Shown here one piece after another: positions 11,160 to 17,663 of a stretch of DNA of 64,000 nucleotides. A model generated the notes under the pieces. That model was given only the letters and a program-made list of their open reading frames with translations, did no database searches and was not told the DNA's origin. The stretch is from assembly GCF_058153355.1 (NCBI RefSeq), contig NZ_CM177019.1. One strand, written 5' to 3'. Made by a program: the position numbers and the translations under genes. The number at the start of each line of letters is the position of its first letter. The stretch's first letter is position 1.

Positions 11160-11297
11160 CGGGAAAGCCCCTCCCGAGGAAGGGGCCTTAAATAAGGAAA
11201 GGGTCATGATGAAGTGGATCATCATCGTGGTGCTCTTAGTCGTTAGCTACCCAGCTTACTAAGACTACCAGGGCGGGGGAAACCCCGCTCAACCCTC
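11160..11297 (-). ncRNA. sib: Predicted Sib-type antisense RNA (antitoxin) covering ibs copy 1; ends approximate
   Basis: Minus-strand promoter-like TTGACA (plus 11328-11333), 17-nt spacer, TATTTT (plus 11305-11310); minus-strand hairpin GCCCCTTCCTCGGGAGGGGC followed by a T-rich tract near 11165-11195 as terminator; transcript fully overlaps the ibs ORF. Confidence 0.45.
11206..11262 (+). CDS. ibs: Ibs-family type I toxin, 18 aa (MMKWIIIVVLLVVSYPAY), repeat copy 1
   Basis: Short hydrophobic ORF with an MMK start and PAY C-terminus, preceded by an AAGGAAAGGG Shine-Dalgarno-like sequence; matches the Ibs toxin pattern. Too short for the ORF track. Confidence 0.75.
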   Translation: MMKWIIIVVLLVVSYPAY

Positions 11298-11487
11298 ACT
11301 CCTGAAAATATGCCTTCACGGTCAGAATGTCAATCCGCAGGCTTTGCAGTCTGCGATCCTGCCAGCAAATATTCTTTGCGAGTCGTTACGCAATAATCAC
11401 AGATGAAACTATTTTATCTAAGCGTTAGCGATAGACTGCATTCAGGGCAAAAGGAGGTAGGCCGACGATTTCAGCGGGACGCTGAAA

Positions 11488-11625
11488 CGGGAAAGCCCCT
11501 CCCGAGGAAGGGGCCTTAAATAAGGAAAGGGTCATGATGAAGATACTCATCATCGTGGTGCTCTTAGTCATTAGCTTACCGGCTTACTAAGACTACCAGG
11601 GCGGGGGAAACCCCGCTCTACCCTC
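11488..11625 (-). ncRNA. sib: Predicted Sib-type antisense RNA covering ibs copy 2; ends approximate
   Basis: Same architecture as copy 1, shifted 328 bp; -10 element is TACTTT. Confidence 0.42.
11534..11590 (+). CDS. ibs: Ibs-family type I toxin, 18 aa (MMKILIIVVLLVISLPAY), repeat copy 2
   Basis: Same features as copy 1, exactly 328 bp downstream. Confidence 0.75.
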   Translation: MMKILIIVVLLVISLPAY

Positions 11626-11815
11626 ACTCCTGAAAGTATGCCTTCACAATCAGATTGTCAATCCGCAGGCTTTGTAGTCTGCGATCCTGCCAGCAAATAT
11701 TCTTTGCGAGACGTTACGCAATAATCACATGTGAAACTATTTTATCTGCAAGTTAGCGATAGACTGCTTGCATGGCGAAAGGAGGTAGGCCGCCGATTTC
11801 AGCGGGACGCTGAAA

Positions 11816-11953
11816 CGGGAAAGCCCCTCCCGAGGAAGGGGCCTTAAATAAGGAAAGGGTCATGATGAAGCTACTCATCATCGTGGTGCTCTTAGTTATT
11901 AGCTGGCCAGCTTACTAAGACTACCAGGGCGGGGGAAACCCCGCTCTACCCTC
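11816..11953 (-). ncRNA. sib: Predicted Sib-type antisense RNA covering ibs copy 3; ends approximate
   Basis: Same architecture; TTGACA retained, -10 degenerate (TAACTT), so expression is less certain. Confidence 0.38.
11862..11918 (+). CDS. ibs: Ibs-family type I toxin, 18 aa (MMKLLIIVVLLVISWPAY), repeat copy 3
   Basis: Same features as copy 1, 656 bp downstream. Confidence 0.75.
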   Translation: MMKLLIIVVLLVISWPAY

Positions 11954-12135
11954 ACTCCTGAAGTTATGTTACTCCACCCTTATTGTCAATCTGTAAGTCC
12001 ACGTTCTTGCGGGGCGAATAGCAAAACCCTCTGCGCTTATGGGCCGAATTCTGAAAGTTGCTTTGCCTGCTCTTATTTCATTATTGCAGTCGGTATGATA
12101 CCGGACCTCAATAATTCTCTAAGAAAGGATTTCTT

Positions 12136-12795
12136 ATGAGCGAACAAATCACGTTTGCCACCAGCGATTTTGCCAGTAACCCGGAACCACGTTGCCCCTG
12201 CATTTTGCTGTTGGATGTTTCTGGTTCGATGAGTGGTAGACCTATTAATGAACTTAACGCCGGATTGGTTACCTTTCGCGATGAACTGCTTGCCGATTCG
12301 CTGGCCTTAAAAAGAGTGGAACTCGGTATTGTGACGTTCGGCCCGGTGCATGTGGAACAACCATTTACCAGCGCCGCTAATTTTTTCCCGCCCATCCTGT
12401 TTGCCCAGGGCGATACACCAATGGGGGCCGCCATTACCAAAGCCCTGAATATGGTTGAGGAGCGCAAACGTGAGTATCGCGCCAATGGTATTTCCTATTA
12501 TCGTCCGTGGATTTTCCTGATTACCGATGGCGCACCAACCGATGAGTGGCAGGCTGCTGCCAACAAGGTGTTTCAGGGGGAAGAAGATAAGAAGTTTGCC
12601 TTCTTTTCCATCGGTGTTCAGGGGGCGGATATGAAGACGCTGGCCCAAATCAGCGTTCGTCAGCCTTTGCCACTGCAGGGATTACAATTCCGTGAACTGT
12701 TTAGCTGGTTATCCAGTTCGCTGCGTTCGGTTTCCCGCTCCACGCCGGGAACGGAAGTTGTACTGGAAGCGCCAAAAGGCTGGACGTCAGTGTGA
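12136..12795 (+). CDS. yegL: von Willebrand factor A (vWA) domain protein, TerY-like
   Basis: 219-aa ORF; MIDAS motif DVSGSMSG near the N-terminus ([11 protein letters not shown]) and later ITDGAPTD, typical of vWA / TerY proteins. Confidence 0.85.
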
Positions 12796-13553
12796 GCTGG
12801 CGTCTGGTTTATGCATCAGCCGTTGGAACGTCGCACATCAGCGCTGACTTGTCTTGCCAGGATGCCTGCCAGATGCAGGTTGCCTGGCTAGAAGACCAGC
12901 AGCCATTATTGTCGGTATTTGTCGCTGATGGCGCAGGCAGCGTCTCGCAGGGAGGCGAAGGTGCGAAGCTTGCCGTCAATGAAGCGATGGCTTATATATC
13001 GCAAAAAGTGCAGGGTGGGGAATTAGGGCTTAATGATGTTCTCGCCACGGATATTGTACTGACTATTCGTCAGCGACTTTTTGCCGAGGCAGAGGCCAAA
13101 GAATTAGCGGTTCGCGATTTTGCCTGCACATTTCTGGGACTGATTTCATCGCCTAACGGCACATTGATTATGCAGATTGGCGATGGTGGCGTGGTGGTAG
13201 ATTTGGGGCACGGTTTGCAATTGCCGCTCACGCCGATGGTGGGTGAATATGCCAACATGACGCATTTCATTACCGATGAAGATGCCGTTTCCAGACTGGA
13301 AACTTTCACCAGCACTGAGCGTGCGCATAGAGTTGCAGCATTTACGGATGGTATTCAGAGACTGGCGTTAAATATGCTGGATAATTCTCCGCATGTGCCT
13401 TTCTTTACCCCGTTTTTCAATGGACTGGCGTCAGCAACGCAGGAACAACTCGATTTATTACCTGAATTGTTAAAGCAGTTTTTGTCCAGCCCAGCGGTAA
13501 ACGAGCGTACCGATGATGATAAAACGTTAGCACTGGCTATGTGGACAGAATGA
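12792..13553 (+). CDS. yegK: PP2C-family Ser/Thr protein phosphatase (YegK; also called PphC if my recollection is right)
   Basis: 253-aa ORF starting with GTG at 12792, overlapping the yegL stop by 4 bp; metal-binding Asp/Gly motifs VADGAGS and MQIGDGG typical of PP2C phosphatases. Confidence 0.82.
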
Positions 13554-13562
13554 ACATCGCAT

Positions 13563-13590
13563 GGCGGTTGAAGACAACGGTTCAACCGCC
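13563..13590. terminator. Perfect 10-bp inverted repeat (GGCGGTTGAA, 8-nt loop, TTCAACCGCC) between convergent yegK and yegJ
   Basis: Hairpin read directly from the sequence; no strong T-tract on either side, so intrinsic-terminator function is uncertain. Confidence 0.35.
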
Positions 13591-13617
13591 AGTTTAAGCA
13601 ATCAATATAATGGCTGG

Positions 13618-14079
13618 CTAGCGAACTAACTTTGCTCTTAGCTCGTCGGCTTCTTCTTTTGGATAGGTGACCAATAAAGGATCAATGGTATAACCACCGT
13701 AAATTTTATCCCCGCGCGTATACATCCAGTCTGAAATATCTTCTTTCTTGATTTTCCACTCCTGGCCATATTCTACGTTTGTAACAATACCAGGGTCATT
13801 GCTTATTATACCAATAAACATGCCGTTAGAATAAGTCACATCCGTGAGCCAGAAATGCTCGGTTTCTCCGCGATCGGTTATCGGGGCTTTGACTGCGAAA
13901 GTATCAGCATCTTTTTTATTCATAACTTCGATGAATTGATCGGTTTCTTTCCGCGCATGTTTAATCGCGTCAGACATCGCCTTTTTATCATAACCTCCCG
14001 TCACTAACGTATCCGAAACTTCACTAAAGCCCGCGGTAGTAAAAAATAGCAGACACAACATAAGTAATATCTTTTTCAT
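13618..14079 (-). CDS. yegJ: Secreted or periplasmic protein of unknown function YegJ
   Basis: 153-aa ORF with N-terminal signal peptide MKKILLMLCLLFFTTAGFS; convergent with yegK and divergent from yegI. Confidence 0.8.
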   Translation of the reverse strand: MKKILLMLCLLFFTTAGFSEVSDTLVTGGYDKKAMSDAIKHARKETDQFIEVMNKKDADTFAVKAPITDRGETEHFWLTDVTYSNGMFIGIISNDPGIVTNVEYGQEWKIKKEDISDWMYTRGDKIYGGYTIDPLLVTYPKEEADELRAKLVR

Positions 14080-14279
14080 TTTTTCTCCAGAATCCCTGTG
14101 TAGTAAAAGTTAGCAAAAAACCTGTGGAAGTGAATCATTATCAGGTTGGAATTGAATTGTATCCTGATGAAATTGCATTATCATTTTTATTCTTGAGTGG
14201 GACTCTTCCAATATGGAAATAATTATAATGGGCAGTGTTATTATTCATTGAAATATAATATGACTGCCCTTGAAACATT

Positions 14280-16226
14280 ATGAAGAAAAATATAAAAGTA
14301 TTTACATCGACAGGTGAATTGACCACTCTCGGGCGTGAACTGGGCAAAGGTGGCGAAGGCGCGGTTTATGATATCGAGGAGTTTGTCGATAGCGTCGCCA
14401 AGATTTATCACACGCCGCCACCCGCCTTAAAACAGGACAAACTTGCCTTTATGGCTGCGACAGTTGACGCGCAGTTGCTGAATTATGTCACCTGGCCGCA
14501 AGCAACGCTTCATAGTGGACGAGGTGGGAAGGTTATCGGTTTTATGATGCCAAAAGTTTCTGGTAAAGAACCGATTCATATGATCTATAGCCCGGCACAT
14601 CGTCGCCAGAGTTACCCTCATTGTGCGTGGGATTTTCTCCTCTATGTTGCGCGCAATATTGCTTCATCTTTTGCTACGGTTCATGAGCACGGGCACGTCG
14701 TGGGTGACGTAAACCAGAACAGCTTTATGGTAGGTCGCGACAGCAAAGTGGTGTTGATCGATAGTGACTCCTTTCAGATTAACGCCAATGGCACACTGCA
14801 TTTATGCGAAGTCGGCGTGTCGCATTTTACGCCGCCAGAGCTGCAAACCTTGTCGTCATTTGTTGGCTTTGAACGCACAGAAAATCACGATAATTTTGGC
14901 CTTGCATTGCTGATTTTTCACGTCTTGTTTGGTGGGCGGCATCCTTATTCTGGTGTGCCGCTTATCTCTGATGCGGGTAATGCGCTGGAGACGGATATTG
15001 CCCATTTTCGTTATGCCTACGCGTCAGACAATCAGAGACGTGGCTTAAAACCGCCGCCACGATCGATTCCGCTATCGATGTTACCGGGTGATGTTGCAGC
15101 CATGTTTCAGCAGGCATTCACGGAAAGTGGCGTGGCAACCTCGCGTCCGACGGCAAAAGCGTGGGTAGCGGCACTGGATTCTCTACGCCAACAGTTAAAG
15201 AAATGTACCGTTTCAGCAATGCATGTTTACCCTGGTCATTTAACCGACTGCCCGTGGTGTACACTGGATAATCAAGGCGTTATCTATTTTATTGATCTTG
15301 GCGAAGAGGTGATTACCACCGGCGGTGATTTTGTGCTGGCGAAAGTCTGGGCGATGGTGATGGCGTCAGTAGCACCGCCAGCACTACAGTTACCATTACC
15401 CGCTCATTTCCAACCAGCTGGCAGGCCGCTTCCTTTAGGCCTGTTACGGCGTGAATACATTATTCTGATTGAGATCGCACTGTCAGCGTTATCGCTGTTG
15501 CTTTGCGGTCTTCAGGCAGAACCGCGTTATATTATTTTGGTGCCTGTGCTGGCGGCTATCTGGATTATTGGCAGTCTGACAAGCAAAGCTTACAAAGCAG
15601 AAGTCCAGCACCGTCGTGAGGTATTTAATCGTGCGAAAATGGACTATGACCATTTAGTCAGCCAGATCCAACAGTTGGGCGGGTTGGAAGGTTTTATCGC
15701 CAAACGGACGATGCTCGAAAAAATGAAGGACGAAATTCTCGGTTTACCGGAAGAAGAAAAGCGCGCGGTGGCAGCACTTCATGACACCGCAAGGGAACGG
15801 CAGAAGCAGAAGTTTCTGGAGGGATTTTTTATTGATGTTGCCTCTATTCCCGGCGTTGGCCCTGCGCGTAAAGCGGCGTTACGGTCTTTTGGTATTGAAA
15901 CAGCAGCAGATGTTACCCGTCGTGGTGTTAAGCAAGTGAAAGGGTTTGGTGACCATCTGACCCAGGCGGTTATCGACTGGAAAGCGAGTTGCGAACGCCG
16001 TTTTGTGTTCAGGCCGAATGAAGCGGTAACGCCAGCAGACAGACAAGCGGTAATGGCGAAAATGACCGCCAAACGACATCGGCTGGAATCGGCGCTGACT
16101 GTCGGCGCGACAGAGTTGCAGCGATTCCGCCTTCATGCTCCTGCACGGACCATGCCGTTGATGGAACCATTACGTCAGGCAGCGGAGAAACTGGCTCAGG
16201 CGCAGGCTGATTTAAGCCGCTGCTGA
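14280..16226 (+). CDS. yegI: Membrane-associated eukaryote-like Ser/Thr protein kinase YegI
   Basis: 648-aa ORF; kinase-like N-terminal half (GKGGEGAVYDI glycine-rich loop, VGDVNQNSFMV catalytic-loop-like, IDSDSFQ DFG-like), central hydrophobic segment, C-terminal helix-hairpin-helix-like motifs. Confidence 0.85.
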   Translation: MKKNIKVFTSTGELTTLGRELGKGGEGAVYDIEEFVDSVAKIYHTPPPALKQDKLAFMAATVDAQLLNYVTWPQATLHSGRGGKVIGFMMPKVSGKEPIHMIYSPAHRRQSYPHCAWDFLLYVARNIASSFATVHEHGHVVGDVNQNSFMVGRDSKVVLIDSDSFQINANGTLHLCEVGVSHFTPPELQTLSSFVGFERTENHDNFGLALLIFHVLFGGRHPYSGVPLISDAGNALETDIAHFRYAYASDNQRRGLKPPPRSIPLSMLPGDVAAMFQQAFTESGVATSRPTAKAWVAALDSLRQQLKKCTVSAMHVYPGHLTDCPWCTLDNQGVIYFIDLGEEVITTGGDFVLAKVWAMVMASVAPPALQLPLPAHFQPAGRPLPLGLLRREYIILIEIALSALSLLLCGLQAEPRYIILVPVLAAIWIIGSLTSKAYKAEVQHRREVFNRAKMDYDHLVSQIQQLGGLEGFIAKRTMLEKMKDEILGLPEEEKRAVAALHDTARERQKQKFLEGFFIDVASIPGVGPARKAALRSFGIETAADVTRRGVKQVKGFGDHLTQAVIDWKASCERRFVFRPNEAVTPADRQAVMAKMTAKRHRLESALTVGATELQRFRLHAPARTMPLMEPLRQAAEKLAQAQADLSRC

Positions 16227-16238
16227 GCCATTTTTCAA

Positions 16239-17591
16239 TTAACGAAACACCACTTCTGCCCAACGTGCCAGCCCGGCGGTAACCGACCCAAAGTCATCGC
16301 CGCCTGCAATTGGAATGCCCGGCAACTGTTCTGCCAGCGCTTTTTTAATCAGCGGTGATCGGGCGCTACCACCAGTCAGATAGATGACATCCGGTTTTTC
16401 CTGGGCGTTATCCAGCGCCAGTTGCACCTGTTCCAGAATTCGCGCCAGCGGCTGACTGAGGGCGTTTTCCAGTCCTTGTTGGCTAATCAGTGTTGCCAGT
16501 TCATCGCTGATAAACGGCAGCGATGCGCGGGTTTCCGCTGCGCTGGAAAGGGCGATTTTGCTCTCTTCCGCGCTGCGTACCAGCCGATAACTTAAACGCT
16601 GACGCCAGACTTTCTGTAACAGGGCCACTTTCTCCGGTTCGCGGGCGTCGCGTACCAGGTCGTTAAGCAGACGACCGTTAGCACTACTGTAGAAATCACT
16701 CTGCGCTGGTACATCGTTGATGGCAACCGCATTCCACCACGGCAGGATCGGCAGGGCGATGCCTTTTTCGGTTTCGCCACCCATGCCCAGTAACGGCATC
16801 AGGTTTTTAAACGCCAGCGCGATATCCAGATCGTTACCACCAATACGGCAACCACTATGACCCAGCAGGCTGGCTTCACGATCGAGACGCGAACGCCACT
16901 GTGGCCCCATTAGCAGTAAAGAACAGTCAGTCGTACCACCACCAATATCCACCACCAGCACCCGTTTTTCTTCCTGCAAGGTGGCTTCGTAATCCAGCCC
17001 AGCCGCCACCGGCTCGTACTGGAATACCACATCCTTAAACCCGGCACGCTTCGCTGCGCGCTCCAGAATCCCTTGTGCCTGGGCGTTTGCTTCATCGCCG
17101 CCCAGCCCCTGGAAGTTGATCGGGCGACCAATCACCGCCTGGGTAATCGCTTCTGGCAATTGCGCCTGCGCCTGTTGGCGAATGTGCAGCATCATTGCGC
17201 AGACCAGATCCTCAAACAGCGCTACCTGCTGCGGTTTTAAGCCGCTGGCACCGAGGAACGATTTTGGTGATTTCACAAACCACACTTCTTCCGGATCATC
17301 AATGTATTGTGCCAGTGAAGAAAGACCGAACTGCACGCTTTTCGCCGTGACATCGATATCTTCTTCGCGGTTATAACGAATTGCCCGACGTAATAGCGCC
17401 TGCGTTTCATTGTCGTCTGCCGGAACATCATGATGGCGGTACAGCCATTCGCTTACCGCTTCACGCGTTGGCGCGCAAAGCATTGAAGGCAGCAGCGTGC
17501 TGTCGTTTTCCATTTTCAGTAATTGCGGTTTACCGTCACGCATGACCGCCACTGAACAGTTTGCTGTACCGTAATCAAAACCAATAAACAC
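16239..17591 (-). CDS. yegD: Hsp70-family (actin-like ATPase) protein YegD
   Basis: Chosen start is the GTG at 17589-17591, giving 450 aa beginning (M)FIGFDYGTANCSVAV (phosphate-1 motif of Hsp70/actin fold); later VVDIGGGTTD. The ORF-track 471-aa form is an upstream extension. Confidence 0.85.
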   Translation of the reverse strand: MFIGFDYGTANCSVAVMRDGKPQLLKMENDSTLLPSMLCAPTREAVSEWLYRHHDVPADDNETQALLRRAIRYNREEDIDVTAKSVQFGLSSLAQYIDDPEEVWFVKSPKSFLGASGLKPQQVALFEDLVCAMMLHIRQQAQAQLPEAITQAVIGRPINFQGLGGDEANAQAQGILERAAKRAGFKDVVFQYEPVAAGLDYEATLQEEKRVLVVDIGGGTTDCSLLLMGPQWRSRLDREASLLGHSGCRIGGNDLDIALAFKNLMPLLGMGGETEKGIALPILPWWNAVAINDVPAQSDFYSSANGRLLNDLVRDAREPEKVALLQKVWRQRLSYRLVRSAEESKIALSSAAETRASLPFISDELATLISQQGLENALSQPLARILEQVQLALDNAQEKPDVIYLTGGSARSPLIKKALAEQLPGIPIAGGDDFGSVTAGLARWAEVVFR

Positions 17592-17663
17592 GAAATAATC
17601 CCCATGCCGGTGAAGAAGGGGCGTGACTTTAGCGAAATGTTGCCGTCGCGACAACCGGAATAT

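Follow-up and report, generated by a model that had tools for sequence, protein, structure and literature searches.

The protein kinase YegI of Escherichia coli: a predicted (HhH)2 domain between helical arms, and a conserved vWA-PP2C-kinase gene cassette

We propose that YegI, a membrane-anchored Ser/Thr kinase of E. coli, provides the kinase of a three-gene phospho-switch that is self-contained and has spread horizontally, and that the autophosphorylation of YegI is tuned by DNA at the inner face of the membrane. We put the probability of this reading a little below one half (roughly 0.45). The gene lies within the window, which is the whole stretch of 64,000 nucleotides analysed here:

14280 to 16226, plus strand: yegI, a complete open reading frame with an ATG start, coding for 648 amino acids followed by a stop codon.

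The identity of the gene is clear. It has 98.2% nucleotide identity to the annotated E. coli yegI, with identical neighbours, and is named 'protein kinase YegI' in RefSeq. The product is 93-97% identical to NCBI proteins of that name, and 57-59% identical over 95-99% of its length to JGI proteins named 'DNA-binding helix-hairpin-helix protein with protein kinase domain'. By this full-length similarity it belongs to COG4248 / 'protein kinase YegI'. COG4248 is defined by the pairing of a kinase with a helix-hairpin-helix (HhH) domain (the COG name is quoted in PMC3861447), and the same pairing is present in the COG, NCBI and JGI names of the homologues. The protein here is 648 aa long compared to 646 aa in REL606, and has yegJ inserted upstream, but it does not differ in kind from the published yegI. 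Of 5,426 complete E. coli genomes, 5,410 (99.7%) carry the gene, which encodes one of very few E. coli Ser/Thr kinases.

An earlier note on this DNA recognized the combination of kinase, membrane segment and HhH motifs. This is correct but not new: by itself it re-derives existing annotation. The note also called the combination unusual, a view that does not survive, given the names listed above and the occurrence of the C-terminal module in 2,049 protein clusters (at 50% identity), from many bacterial phyla and from Methanoregula. The published biochemistry, in its bioRxiv version (10.1101/819920), passes over the C-terminal third of YegI; its HhH domain, zinc motif and helical arms go unmentioned. 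A literature search for yegI together with helix-hairpin-helix returned one unrelated structural-genomics paper and nothing else. To this, the present analysis adds the (HhH)2 fold and the zinc motif, and shows that the cassette is conserved and widely distributed. The features of YegI are as follows.

14280 to 15188, plus strand: divergent Hanks-type Ser/Thr kinase domain, aa 1-303, assigned from conserved motifs, weak HMM matches and published activity.
15204 to 15260, plus strand: putative zinc knuckle C309-x5-H315-x8-C324-P-W-C327, assigned from conservation.
15327 to 15365, plus strand: amphipathic helix aa 350-362 (FVLAKVWAMVMAS), helical in the full-length model and followed by a Pro-rich linker.
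15456 to 15584, plus strand: two-helix membrane hairpin, TM1 approximately 393-411 and TM2 approximately 417-435, assigned from hydropathy, model helices and published topology.
15585 to 15824, plus strand: outward arm of a putative cytoplasmic helical stalk, aa 436-515, which continues from TM2 and has 37% charged residues.
15828 to 16010, plus strand: (HhH)2 domain, aa 517-577, with hairpin 1 at G525-V-G527 and hairpin 2 at G555-F-G557.
16032 to 16223, plus strand: return arm of the stalk, aa 585-648.

The kinase-like motifs that had been noticed within residues 1 to about 300 are present and conserved. They are GKGGEG (22-27), K41, GDVNQNS (142-148), DSDS (161-164) and TPPE (184-187), all of which are invariant or nearly so in an alignment of 33 homologues with 56-95% identity (alignment A1). 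The ATP-binding elements, namely the glycine loop G22-K-G-G-E-G27 and K41 (the VAIK lysine), are invariant. The canonical HRDxxxxN and DFG motifs are not found: YegI has V-G-D143-V-N-Q-N-S and D161-S-D, such that both the catalytic and the metal-binding Asp are retained while H, R, N, F and G are replaced. Non-canonical catalytic motifs were likewise reported in the published analysis (10.1101/819920). In REL606 the activation-loop serines S155, S162 and S164 are numbered S153, S160 and S162.

YegI has no match to Pfam Pkinase even at E ≤ 1. Among its relatives, P0255 scores 32.9 bits against this profile (gathering score 31.7), while P0166 and P0242 fall below the gathering score. The kinase region gives weak HMM matches to LanL/LanKC kinase domains, Bud32, TTK and PD-T4-6. 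The domain cannot be named by Pfam or NCBIfam, because the full-length protein matches no kinase family in either and gives weak partial matches only. Kinase activity has been shown experimentally by Rajagopalan & Dworkin (2020), who found that YegI autophosphorylates on Ser in a staurosporine-sensitive and Mn/Mg-dependent manner, that the activation-loop Ser162 (REL606 numbering) is essential, and that the autophosphorylation kinetics are second order (10.1101/819920). The phosphate is stripped from autophosphorylated YegI by PphC (10.1101/303594).

A full-length AlphaFold model was made using 33 homologues, and had an overall pLDDT of 66 and a pTM of 0.38. The kinase lobe was poorly modelled (pLDDT 25-60 for aa 94-263), and the model was therefore kept out of kinase fold searches; its secondary structure and its confident C-terminal part were used.

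In the putative zinc knuckle that follows the kinase domain, alignment A1 shows no variation at C309, H315, H320, C324, W326 and C327, although H320 is conserved among close relatives only. The pattern C-x5-H-x8-C-x2-C recurs near residue 305 in 50 of the 57 representatives that are 600 aa or longer, and from this conservation we infer that the motif may bind metal. It went unnoticed in the earlier note. The amphipathic helix at aa 350-362 is conserved as GFVLxQVWxxIQAV (alignment A1), and a segment resembling it is also present in P0170, a relative that has no kinase domain.

The hydrophobic stretch IILIEIALSALSLLLCGLQAEPRYIILVPVLAAIWIIGSL, at aa 394-433, had been suggested to be a two-helix membrane hairpin, and this is upheld. 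It coincides with the sole strong Kyte-Doolittle peaks of YegI, at 393-411 (2.31) and 417-435 (2.07), and both TM1 and TM2 are helical in the full-length model. Published PhoA-LacZ fusions place residues 414 and 432 in the periplasm or the membrane, and 340, 390, 439 and 646 in the cytoplasm, which shows that the stretch spans the membrane rather than being buried; Rajagopalan & Dworkin (2020) describe a two-pass protein with both termini cytoplasmic (10.1101/819920). The two helices are joined by a periplasmic loop of about five residues (QAEPR). The kinase and the HhH domain are both on the cytoplasmic side of the membrane. A hydrophobic block is found at the equivalent place in 51 of 54 kinase-bearing representatives of at least 600 aa.

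YegI resembles PknB, PrkC and PpkA in having a bilobed kinase core, autophosphorylation in the activation loop, a PP2C partner in the same operon and a membrane anchor. It differs in that HRD, N and DFG are replaced by VGD, S and DSD, in having no extracytoplasmic sensor such as PASTA, and in passing through the membrane twice, so that its C-terminal domain is cytoplasmic.

The two C-terminal stretches proposed to be HhH motifs are IPGVGPARKAALRSFGIETAADV, at aa 523-545, and VKGFGDHLTQAV, at aa 553-564. They contain two G-h-G hairpins approximately 30 residues apart, as in (HhH)2 domains. Hairpin 1 is followed by R530-K531, and the domain ends with the conserved sequence W567-R/K-x3-E-R-R-F-x-F. 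In a set of 89 diverse sequences, G527, G555, F556 and G557 are each present in at least 83; position 530 is R/K in 81 and position 531 is K/R in 69; and the net charge of the domain is positive in 85%. The hairpins, the basic pair and the positive charge are the features that would be expected of a phosphate-binding HhH domain. Pfam HHH_5 matches the isolated C-terminus with E=2e-4, and matches 13 of 14 diverse members of the family, below threshold: the scores for YegI are 19.9 bits (full protein) and 22.1 bits (C-terminus), against a gathering score of 27. A profile made from the 89 sequences was searched against the PDB, and matched HhH modules only, apart from one repeat artefact. The matches include the Pol IV thumb, the L32e N-terminus, REV1, the RAD51 N-terminal domain and the UvrC C-terminus. 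The artefact is the top match, 8jhz, which is a clostridial toxin repeat region, and was rejected because W-x3-ERRFxFNP had been aligned through many tiny W..IDGKKYYFNP repeats.

AlphaFold modelling of aa 498-600 gave a pLDDT of 90.6, and in the model five helices pack compactly and superpose on solved (HhH)2 domains, with the GVG and GFG motifs folded as HhH. Foldseek matches include DisA and ComEA, with E-values of 0.3-4 that are not significant singly. It is the consistency of the matches that makes the case, and it confirms that the (HhH)2 fold is real and more than chance. From this predicted fold the domain may be expected to bind DNA. Our literature search found no DNA-binding experiment on YegI or any relative.

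The (HhH)2 domain is flanked by long helices, which had also been missed. In the model, the outward arm consists of helices 420-467, 469-487, 489-502 and 504-514 (pLDDT 84-93), and the return arm is a single helix, 585-647 (pLDDT 77-92). The return arm bears the published autophosphorylation sites S604 and S646 (S602 and S644 in REL606; 10.1101/819920). As S646 is at the extreme C-terminus, this end of the protein can evidently be reached by a kinase domain. Wherever a relative is 786 aa or longer, an additional membrane helix comes directly after the return arm. The module therefore has both of its ends at the membrane, since it is preceded by TM2 and followed, in these longer relatives, by a third membrane helix.

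These features suggest a mechanism. The two long helices would form an antiparallel stalk, which would hold the (HhH)2 domain away from the membrane; this arrangement is suggested by the topology and not by the model coordinates. The (HhH)2 domain would bind the nucleic-acid backbone with no sequence specificity, contacting it through both G-h-G hairpins and R530/K531. DNA that is close against the inner membrane face, either incoming foreign DNA or membrane-proximal chromosome, would gather or orient YegI molecules and so set the rate of trans-autophosphorylation, with which the second-order kinetics would fit, being compatible with activation by clustering. PphC would reset the switch, and YegL, the vWA protein encoded by the first gene of the cassette, is a likely target or partner of YegI. 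Taken as a whole, the tuning of trans-autophosphorylation by DNA is put forward tentatively, at clearly less than even odds.

Two partial parallels exist. DisA follows a similar logic, with a helical spine between a signalling enzyme and a DNA-reading HhH domain, but its catalytic domain is a diadenylate cyclase, it is soluble and octameric, and it has no sequence relationship to YegI beyond the HhH fold. ComEA (Foldseek match 8dss_B) has a membrane-tethered (HhH)2 domain, which binds DNA without sequence specificity. The HhH domain of ComEA faces outside the cytoplasm, and ComEA is not known to have an enzymatic domain.

Protein contacts, too, can be made through (HhH)2 and SAM-like domains. 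The helical arms and the (HhH)2/SAM-like domain could therefore be a scaffold for dimerization or protein docking and not a nucleic-acid binder, either pairing kinase domains for trans-autophosphorylation or recruiting YegL, PphC or substrates. We consider this rather unlikely, because the G-h-G hairpins and the basic pair are conserved across the 89 diverse sequences, mostly with a net positive charge; such features are typical of proteins that bind the phosphate backbone, a SAM domain can do without them, and the sequence profiles match only DNA- or RNA-binding HhH modules. A more specific form of nucleic-acid recognition is that yegL-pphC-yegI is a membrane-anchored intracellular DNA sensor, which would convert detected DNA into Ser/Thr phosphorylation. 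The stalk-held (HhH)2 domain would then detect DNA that enters through or is pressed against the membrane, whether this stems from conjugation, from injection by a phage or from a perturbed nucleoid. PphC would reset the system, and the vWA protein would be its effector or target. This we regard as unlikely.

The proposal of a DNA-tuned phospho-switch rests also on the genes next to yegI, which are listed here.

12136 to 12795, plus strand: yegL, 219-aa von Willebrand A protein (Pfam VWA, E=5e-10), the first gene of the cassette.
12792 to 13553, plus strand: pphC (yegK), 253-aa PP2C-type Ser/Thr phosphatase (Pfam PP2C_2, E=3.6e-51), the second gene of the cassette.
13618 to 14079, minus strand: yegJ, 153-aa DUF2314 protein (Pfam DUF2314, E=2.4e-25).

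YegL is named 'vWA domain-containing protein' in RefSeq and has the MIDAS motif D27-x-S29-x-S31; its gene is overlapped by pphC by 4 nt. Seventy of 74 genome loci, in organisms as distant as Escherichia, Planctomycetota and Methanoregula, keep the order vWA, PP2C, kinase, with the yegL homologue directly upstream of the other two genes; the PP2C gene adjoins the kinase gene in 72. The cassette is also conserved in an architectural variant. The ancestral cassette lacked yegJ, a lineage-specific insertion between pphC and yegI that is present in 1,917 of the 5,426 complete E. coli genomes and in none of 80 related loci, with a GC content of 40.9% compared to 50-55% in its neighbours. The earlier note had missed the cassette.

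No conserved fourth gene was found, as 149 flanking ORFs scatter over 117 Pfam families. The Hsp70-like gene yegD was considered and left out, being linked within Escherichia only. The neighbours of the cassette vary among genomes; some are defence genes (Gabija, Wadjet, BrxR/WYL, methyltransferases, GmrSD, AbiH), though defence or nuclease genes are a minority. The cassette is not phage-borne, because a collection of 50,697 phage records yielded one partial, kinase-only match. The three genes are reported to be barely expressed under laboratory conditions.

The closest known arrangement is the TerY-P (TerY-phosphorylation) triad, reportedly described by Anantharaman, Iyer and Aravind in 2012; anti-phage TerY-P is said to go back to Gao and colleagues in 2020. 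In TerY-P systems, which are vWA-PP2C-kinase triads, the kinase ends in a nucleic-acid-binding tail that is either a zinc ribbon or an OB fold; activity against phage is described for one type (PMC11090510, PMC7699616). Positions 12136-16226 of the window likewise contain adjacent, co-oriented genes for a MIDAS vWA protein, a PP2C phosphatase and a Ser/Thr kinase in the order of the triad, with yegJ inserted, and YegI has both a zinc-ribbon-like motif after the kinase and a C-terminal extension that appears suited to nucleic-acid binding. It differs in its tail, which is a membrane hairpin with helices and (HhH)2, and not a zinc ribbon or OB fold alone. There are no ter genes within about 6 kb in the window, and none of YegL, PphC and YegI was assigned by the PADLOC TerY-P models, even at E ≤ 10. 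In detail, YegL matched TerY with E=0.013, PphC had no match, and YegI matched the kinase regions of PD-T4-6 and MkoA weakly. No report of phage protection by yegL-pphC-yegI was found in the literature.

DNA could also be a platform and not the signal. In that case the HhH domain would place the membrane kinase beside DNA-bound substrates, such as nucleoid proteins or factors for replication, repair or segregation, and the signal would come from elsewhere, for example YegL or metal. The evidence from fold and conservation applies equally here. In the literature, TerY-P triads figure as switches that sense metal and are coupled to DNA-processing modules (PMC11090510, PMC4978471). Overproduction of either YegI or YegL increases DNA damage in E. 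coli (10.1101/354589), which speaks for the DNA-tuned switch as well as for this alternative. YegL is moreover the most conserved of the three cassette proteins (median identity 64% compared to 41%), as might suit a sensing component. However, YegI has no known substrate and no DNA-processing gene is conserved beside the cassette, and this alternative seems to us quite improbable.

The earlier note suggested signalling that connects the envelope to DNA; on this view the membrane segment of YegI would sense the envelope, and the signal would be relayed to DNA. Some distant relatives, and only these, do have a third membrane helix followed by TonB_C, peptidoglycan-binding (PG_binding_2), TPR or SH3 (SH3_3) domains, which are probably periplasmic. 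Against this, no extracytoplasmic sensor domain was found in YegI or in the great majority of the relatives of about 645 aa, which expose only the short loop and, in YegI, have kinase and HhH domain both in the cytoplasm; the hairpin sequence is poorly conserved in alignment A1, as expected for an anchor; and the relatives P0186, P0250 and P0255 lack the membrane hairpin altogether. A link from envelope to DNA is thus very improbable for YegI. That the GVG/GFG motifs are chance matches with no HhH domain is scarcely credible, since although HHH_5 scores below its gathering threshold, this idea is already refuted by the HHH_5, PDB-profile, AlphaFold and fold results together.

The (HhH)2 domain between long helices, the putative zinc knuckle and the conserved cassette turn YegI from an orphan kinase into a testable hypothesis, namely that it belongs to a DNA-responsive phospho-switch, possibly related to the TerY-P defence systems. 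If, less probably, the cassette is a membrane-anchored sensor of intracellular DNA, nearly every E. coli would carry a widespread TerY-P-like immunity or stress switch.

The frame at window 14280-16226 (plus strand) is a single ORF of 648 codons plus stop, starting with ATG, and the opposite strand has stops throughout. The DNA shares 98.2% identity with E. coli genes that carry the annotation 'yegI: protein kinase YegI', and 5,410 of the 5,426 complete genomes of the species contain a match. The surroundings are those of the E. coli yeg locus, which here also contains alkA and dgcE. The remaining features are:

11191-11333, minus strand, Sib antitoxin RNA (Rfam RF00113; 136-140 bits for the three tandem copies)
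11519-11661, minus strand, Sib antitoxin RNA
11847-11989, minus strand, Sib antitoxin RNA
12136-12795, yegL, vWA protein
12792-13553, pphC (yegK), PP2C phosphatase, overlapping yegL by 4 nt
13618-14079, minus strand, yegJ, DUF2314 protein
16239-17654, minus strand, yegD, Hsp70-like protein

The Sib RNAs, directly upstream of yegL, represent three copies of the ibs/Sib type I toxin-antitoxin; K-12 has two at this site. yegJ (flanks 13554-14279) has a low GC content of 40.9%, compared with 50-55% in its neighbours, and is an insertion that splits the otherwise contiguous pphC-yegI pair. Its product has a signal-peptide-like N-terminus. Only 1,917 of the 5,426 genomes have the gene, and it is missing from all 80 related cassettes of other taxa. 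YegJ is reported to bind RNase E, and its overproduction to induce yegD (2026 paper, PMC13232886). The yegI identity of 98.2% is the best among complete E. coli genomes, the majority being at 90-95%. The alternatives are an unusually high polymorphism of yegI within the species and an origin of the window in a divergent Escherichia lineage. The spread may be related to the recurrent yegI mutations of the long-term evolution experiment (10.1101/303594).

The N-terminal part of YegI was described in the earlier note as kinase-like. This is borne out by the signatures G22-K-G-G-E-G27, K41, V-G-D143-V-N-Q-N-S, D161-S-D-S and T-P-P-E, which vary little or not at all across 33 aligned full-length homologues (56-95% identity). 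YegI autophosphorylates on serine, prefers Mn2+ and is inhibited by staurosporine (Rajagopalan & Dworkin, 10.1101/819920; FEBS Lett 2020). It requires Ser162 of the DSD loop, its kinetics are second-order, and two C-terminal serines are also phosphorylated (10.1101/819920), which in the window's allele are S604 and S646. PphC dephosphorylates YegI, and catalytically dead PphC is phosphorylated by it (companion paper, 10.1101/303594). Directly after the kinase is a motif that the earlier note overlooked, C309-x5-H315-x8-C324-P-W-C327. It is zinc-knuckle-like, is invariant in the same alignment, and recurs with exactly this C/H spacing in 50 of the 57 long representatives. Between it and the first membrane helix lies a conserved amphipathic helix, GFVLxQVWxxIQAV (aa 350-362; window 15327-15365), followed by a Pro-rich linker. 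A similar segment occurs in the kinase-less relative P0170.

All the peptides quoted in the earlier note were found, at aa 394-433, 523-545 and 553-564. The first was read as a two-helix membrane hairpin, and the top two 19-residue hydropathy windows in the whole of YegI are indeed 393-411 (2.31) and 417-435 (2.07), separated by QAEPR. PhoA-LacZα fusions at six positions place 340, 390, 439 and 646 in the cytoplasm, and 414 and 432 in the periplasm or the membrane (Rajagopalan & Dworkin, 10.1101/819920). The membrane segment is therefore settled by earlier published experiment.

The two C-terminal G-h-G hairpins, GVG 525-527 and GFG 555-557, have the 30-residue spacing of an (HhH)2 domain. HHH_5 is the sole Pfam report for YegI, scoring 19.9 bits on the full-length sequence and 22.1 bits (E=2e-4) on the C-terminus alone against a gathering score of 27; the same sub-threshold match is seen in 13 of 14 diverse family members. 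A profile of 89 sequences (38-69% identity) was searched against the PDB, and matched the Pol IV thumb (E=0.011), the N-terminus of archaeal L32e, REV1, the RAD51 N-terminal domain and the UvrC C-terminus. All matches were HhH modules with one exception, a repeat artefact involving clostridial toxins. AlphaFold2, using this alignment for aa 498-600, gave a model (pLDDT 90.6, pTM 0.75) whose helices form two helix-hairpin-helix units. The best Foldseek matches in the PDB were almost all HhH-class domains (Rad51/Dmc1/RadA N-terminal domain, RNA polymerase alpha C-terminal domain, Dpo4 and pol iota thumb, Hjm, DisA, ComEA, RuvA, NusA AR), with E-values weak one by one (0.3-4) and probabilities up to 0.98. 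Conserved positions are the hairpin glycines, a basic pair after hairpin 1 (R/K530-K531), S536-[FY]-G-I-E-T-A-A-D and W567, and the HhH core is net positive in 85% of the 89 sequences. The motifs thus do fold as HhH in the model, contrary to the refuting outcome that the earlier note had named, and the assignment is well supported.

Long helices, overlooked earlier, flank (HhH)2 at 436-515, continuing from the second membrane helix, and at 585-647 (pLDDT 77-93 in the full-length model). All relatives of 786 aa or more have a third membrane helix right after the second long helix, with TPR, TonB_C, PG_binding_2 or SH3_3 domains downstream. Both ends of the module are therefore at the membrane, suggesting an antiparallel helical stalk with (HhH)2 at its tip. 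Distant relatives with extra domains or variant architecture include P0160, P0166, P0170, P0179, P0236, P0242 and P0255. The membrane hairpin is absent from P0186, P0250 and P0255, and the zinc-knuckle pattern from its usual position in P0170, P0179 and P0246; by eye, the N-termini of P0170 and P0246 are cysteine-rich and not kinase-like. The C-terminal module therefore seems to be a separate evolutionary unit.

The earlier note called the combination of kinase and HhH unusual. It is not: homologues are named 'helix-hairpin-helix domain-containing protein' at NCBI and 'DNA-binding helix-hairpin-helix protein with protein kinase domain' at JGI, and searching exhaustively with the last 215 residues gave 2,049 clusters (50% identity) at E<=0.001 and 1,238 at E<=1e-10, most being proteins of ~645 aa with the module in the same position. 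The description as kinase, membrane segment and HhH is correct, but restates existing annotation and published experiments. Taking one genome per species gave 80 loci, from Escherichia, Klebsiella, many Burkholderiales, Pseudomonas, Thiotrichales, Methylococcaceae, Desulfobacterota, Planctomycetota, one cyanobacterium, Lentisphaerae and the archaeon Methanoregula. Homologues also occur on Pseudomonas, Cupriavidus, Ralstonia and rhizobial megaplasmids, and in a phage search were essentially absent. Several Methanoregula assemblies (MAGs; loci L050, L052, L066, L068, L087) have the full vWA-PP2C-kinase cassette, with YegL at ~60% and YegI at ~34% identity, which points to inter-domain transfer or possibly binning contamination.

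At 70 of the 74 loci with enough upstream sequence, and also for the architectural variant P0255, the kinase gene is preceded on its own strand by homologues of yegL and then pphC. The functional unit is three genes, a point missed before. There is no conserved fourth gene (149 flanking ORFs are spread over 117 Pfam families), and linkage to yegD is confined to Escherichia. YegL, with a median identity of 64% (minimum 54%), is much better conserved across phyla than the phosphatase and the kinase, whose medians are 41% each; this would be surprising for a protein that is just a passive substrate. The yeg cassette matches the gene pattern of the published 'TerY-P triad', a vWA-PP2C-kinase set with a nucleic-acid-binding tail on the kinase, and has the zinc motif. 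In CoCoNuT systems the tail is a zinc ribbon, and in the stand-alone anti-phage TerY-P (Gao et al. 2020) it is an OB fold; the predicted role of the triad is that of a metal-sensing phosphorylation switch tied to DNA-processing and restriction systems (PMC11090510, PMC7699616, PMC4978471). However, PADLOC TerY-P models do not recognise the yeg proteins, and no ter genes are nearby. In other genomes some of the cassette's neighbours are defence genes (BrxR/WYL, JetA/JetB, Gabija, GmrSD, AbiH, a KAP NTPase, methyltransferases, SNase), and other neighbours are housekeeping. We therefore call its organisation TerY-P-like and do not count it as a demonstrated member.

It has been shown that YegI is a kinase, anchored in the membrane with cytoplasmic termini, that autophosphorylates on its activation loop and C-terminus and is reset by PphC. 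We propose, with a probability of about 40-45%, that (HhH)2 provides DNA-coupled control: it would bind the nucleic-acid backbone, and so couple DNA at the inner membrane face to clustering-dependent trans-autophosphorylation. Hints of this are the conserved basic hairpin features, the second-order kinetics, the fact that the protein's very C-terminal end, brought back by the stalk model to near the membrane and kinase, is phosphorylated, and the reported increase in DNA damage on overproduction of YegI or YegL (10.1101/354589). The main rival, which we think rather unlikely, is that the helices and SAM-like domain serve as a scaffold for dimerisation or docking. It is more doubtful still that DNA is a mere platform for finding substrates. 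Signalling from envelope to DNA by YegI itself, as the earlier note suggested, is a weak proposal: just ~5 residues are exposed to the periplasm, and sequence conservation of the hairpin among the 33 homologues is poor. DNA-coupled control would follow the same logic as DisA, one of the structural matches of (HhH)2, in which enzyme, helical spine and HhH are joined.
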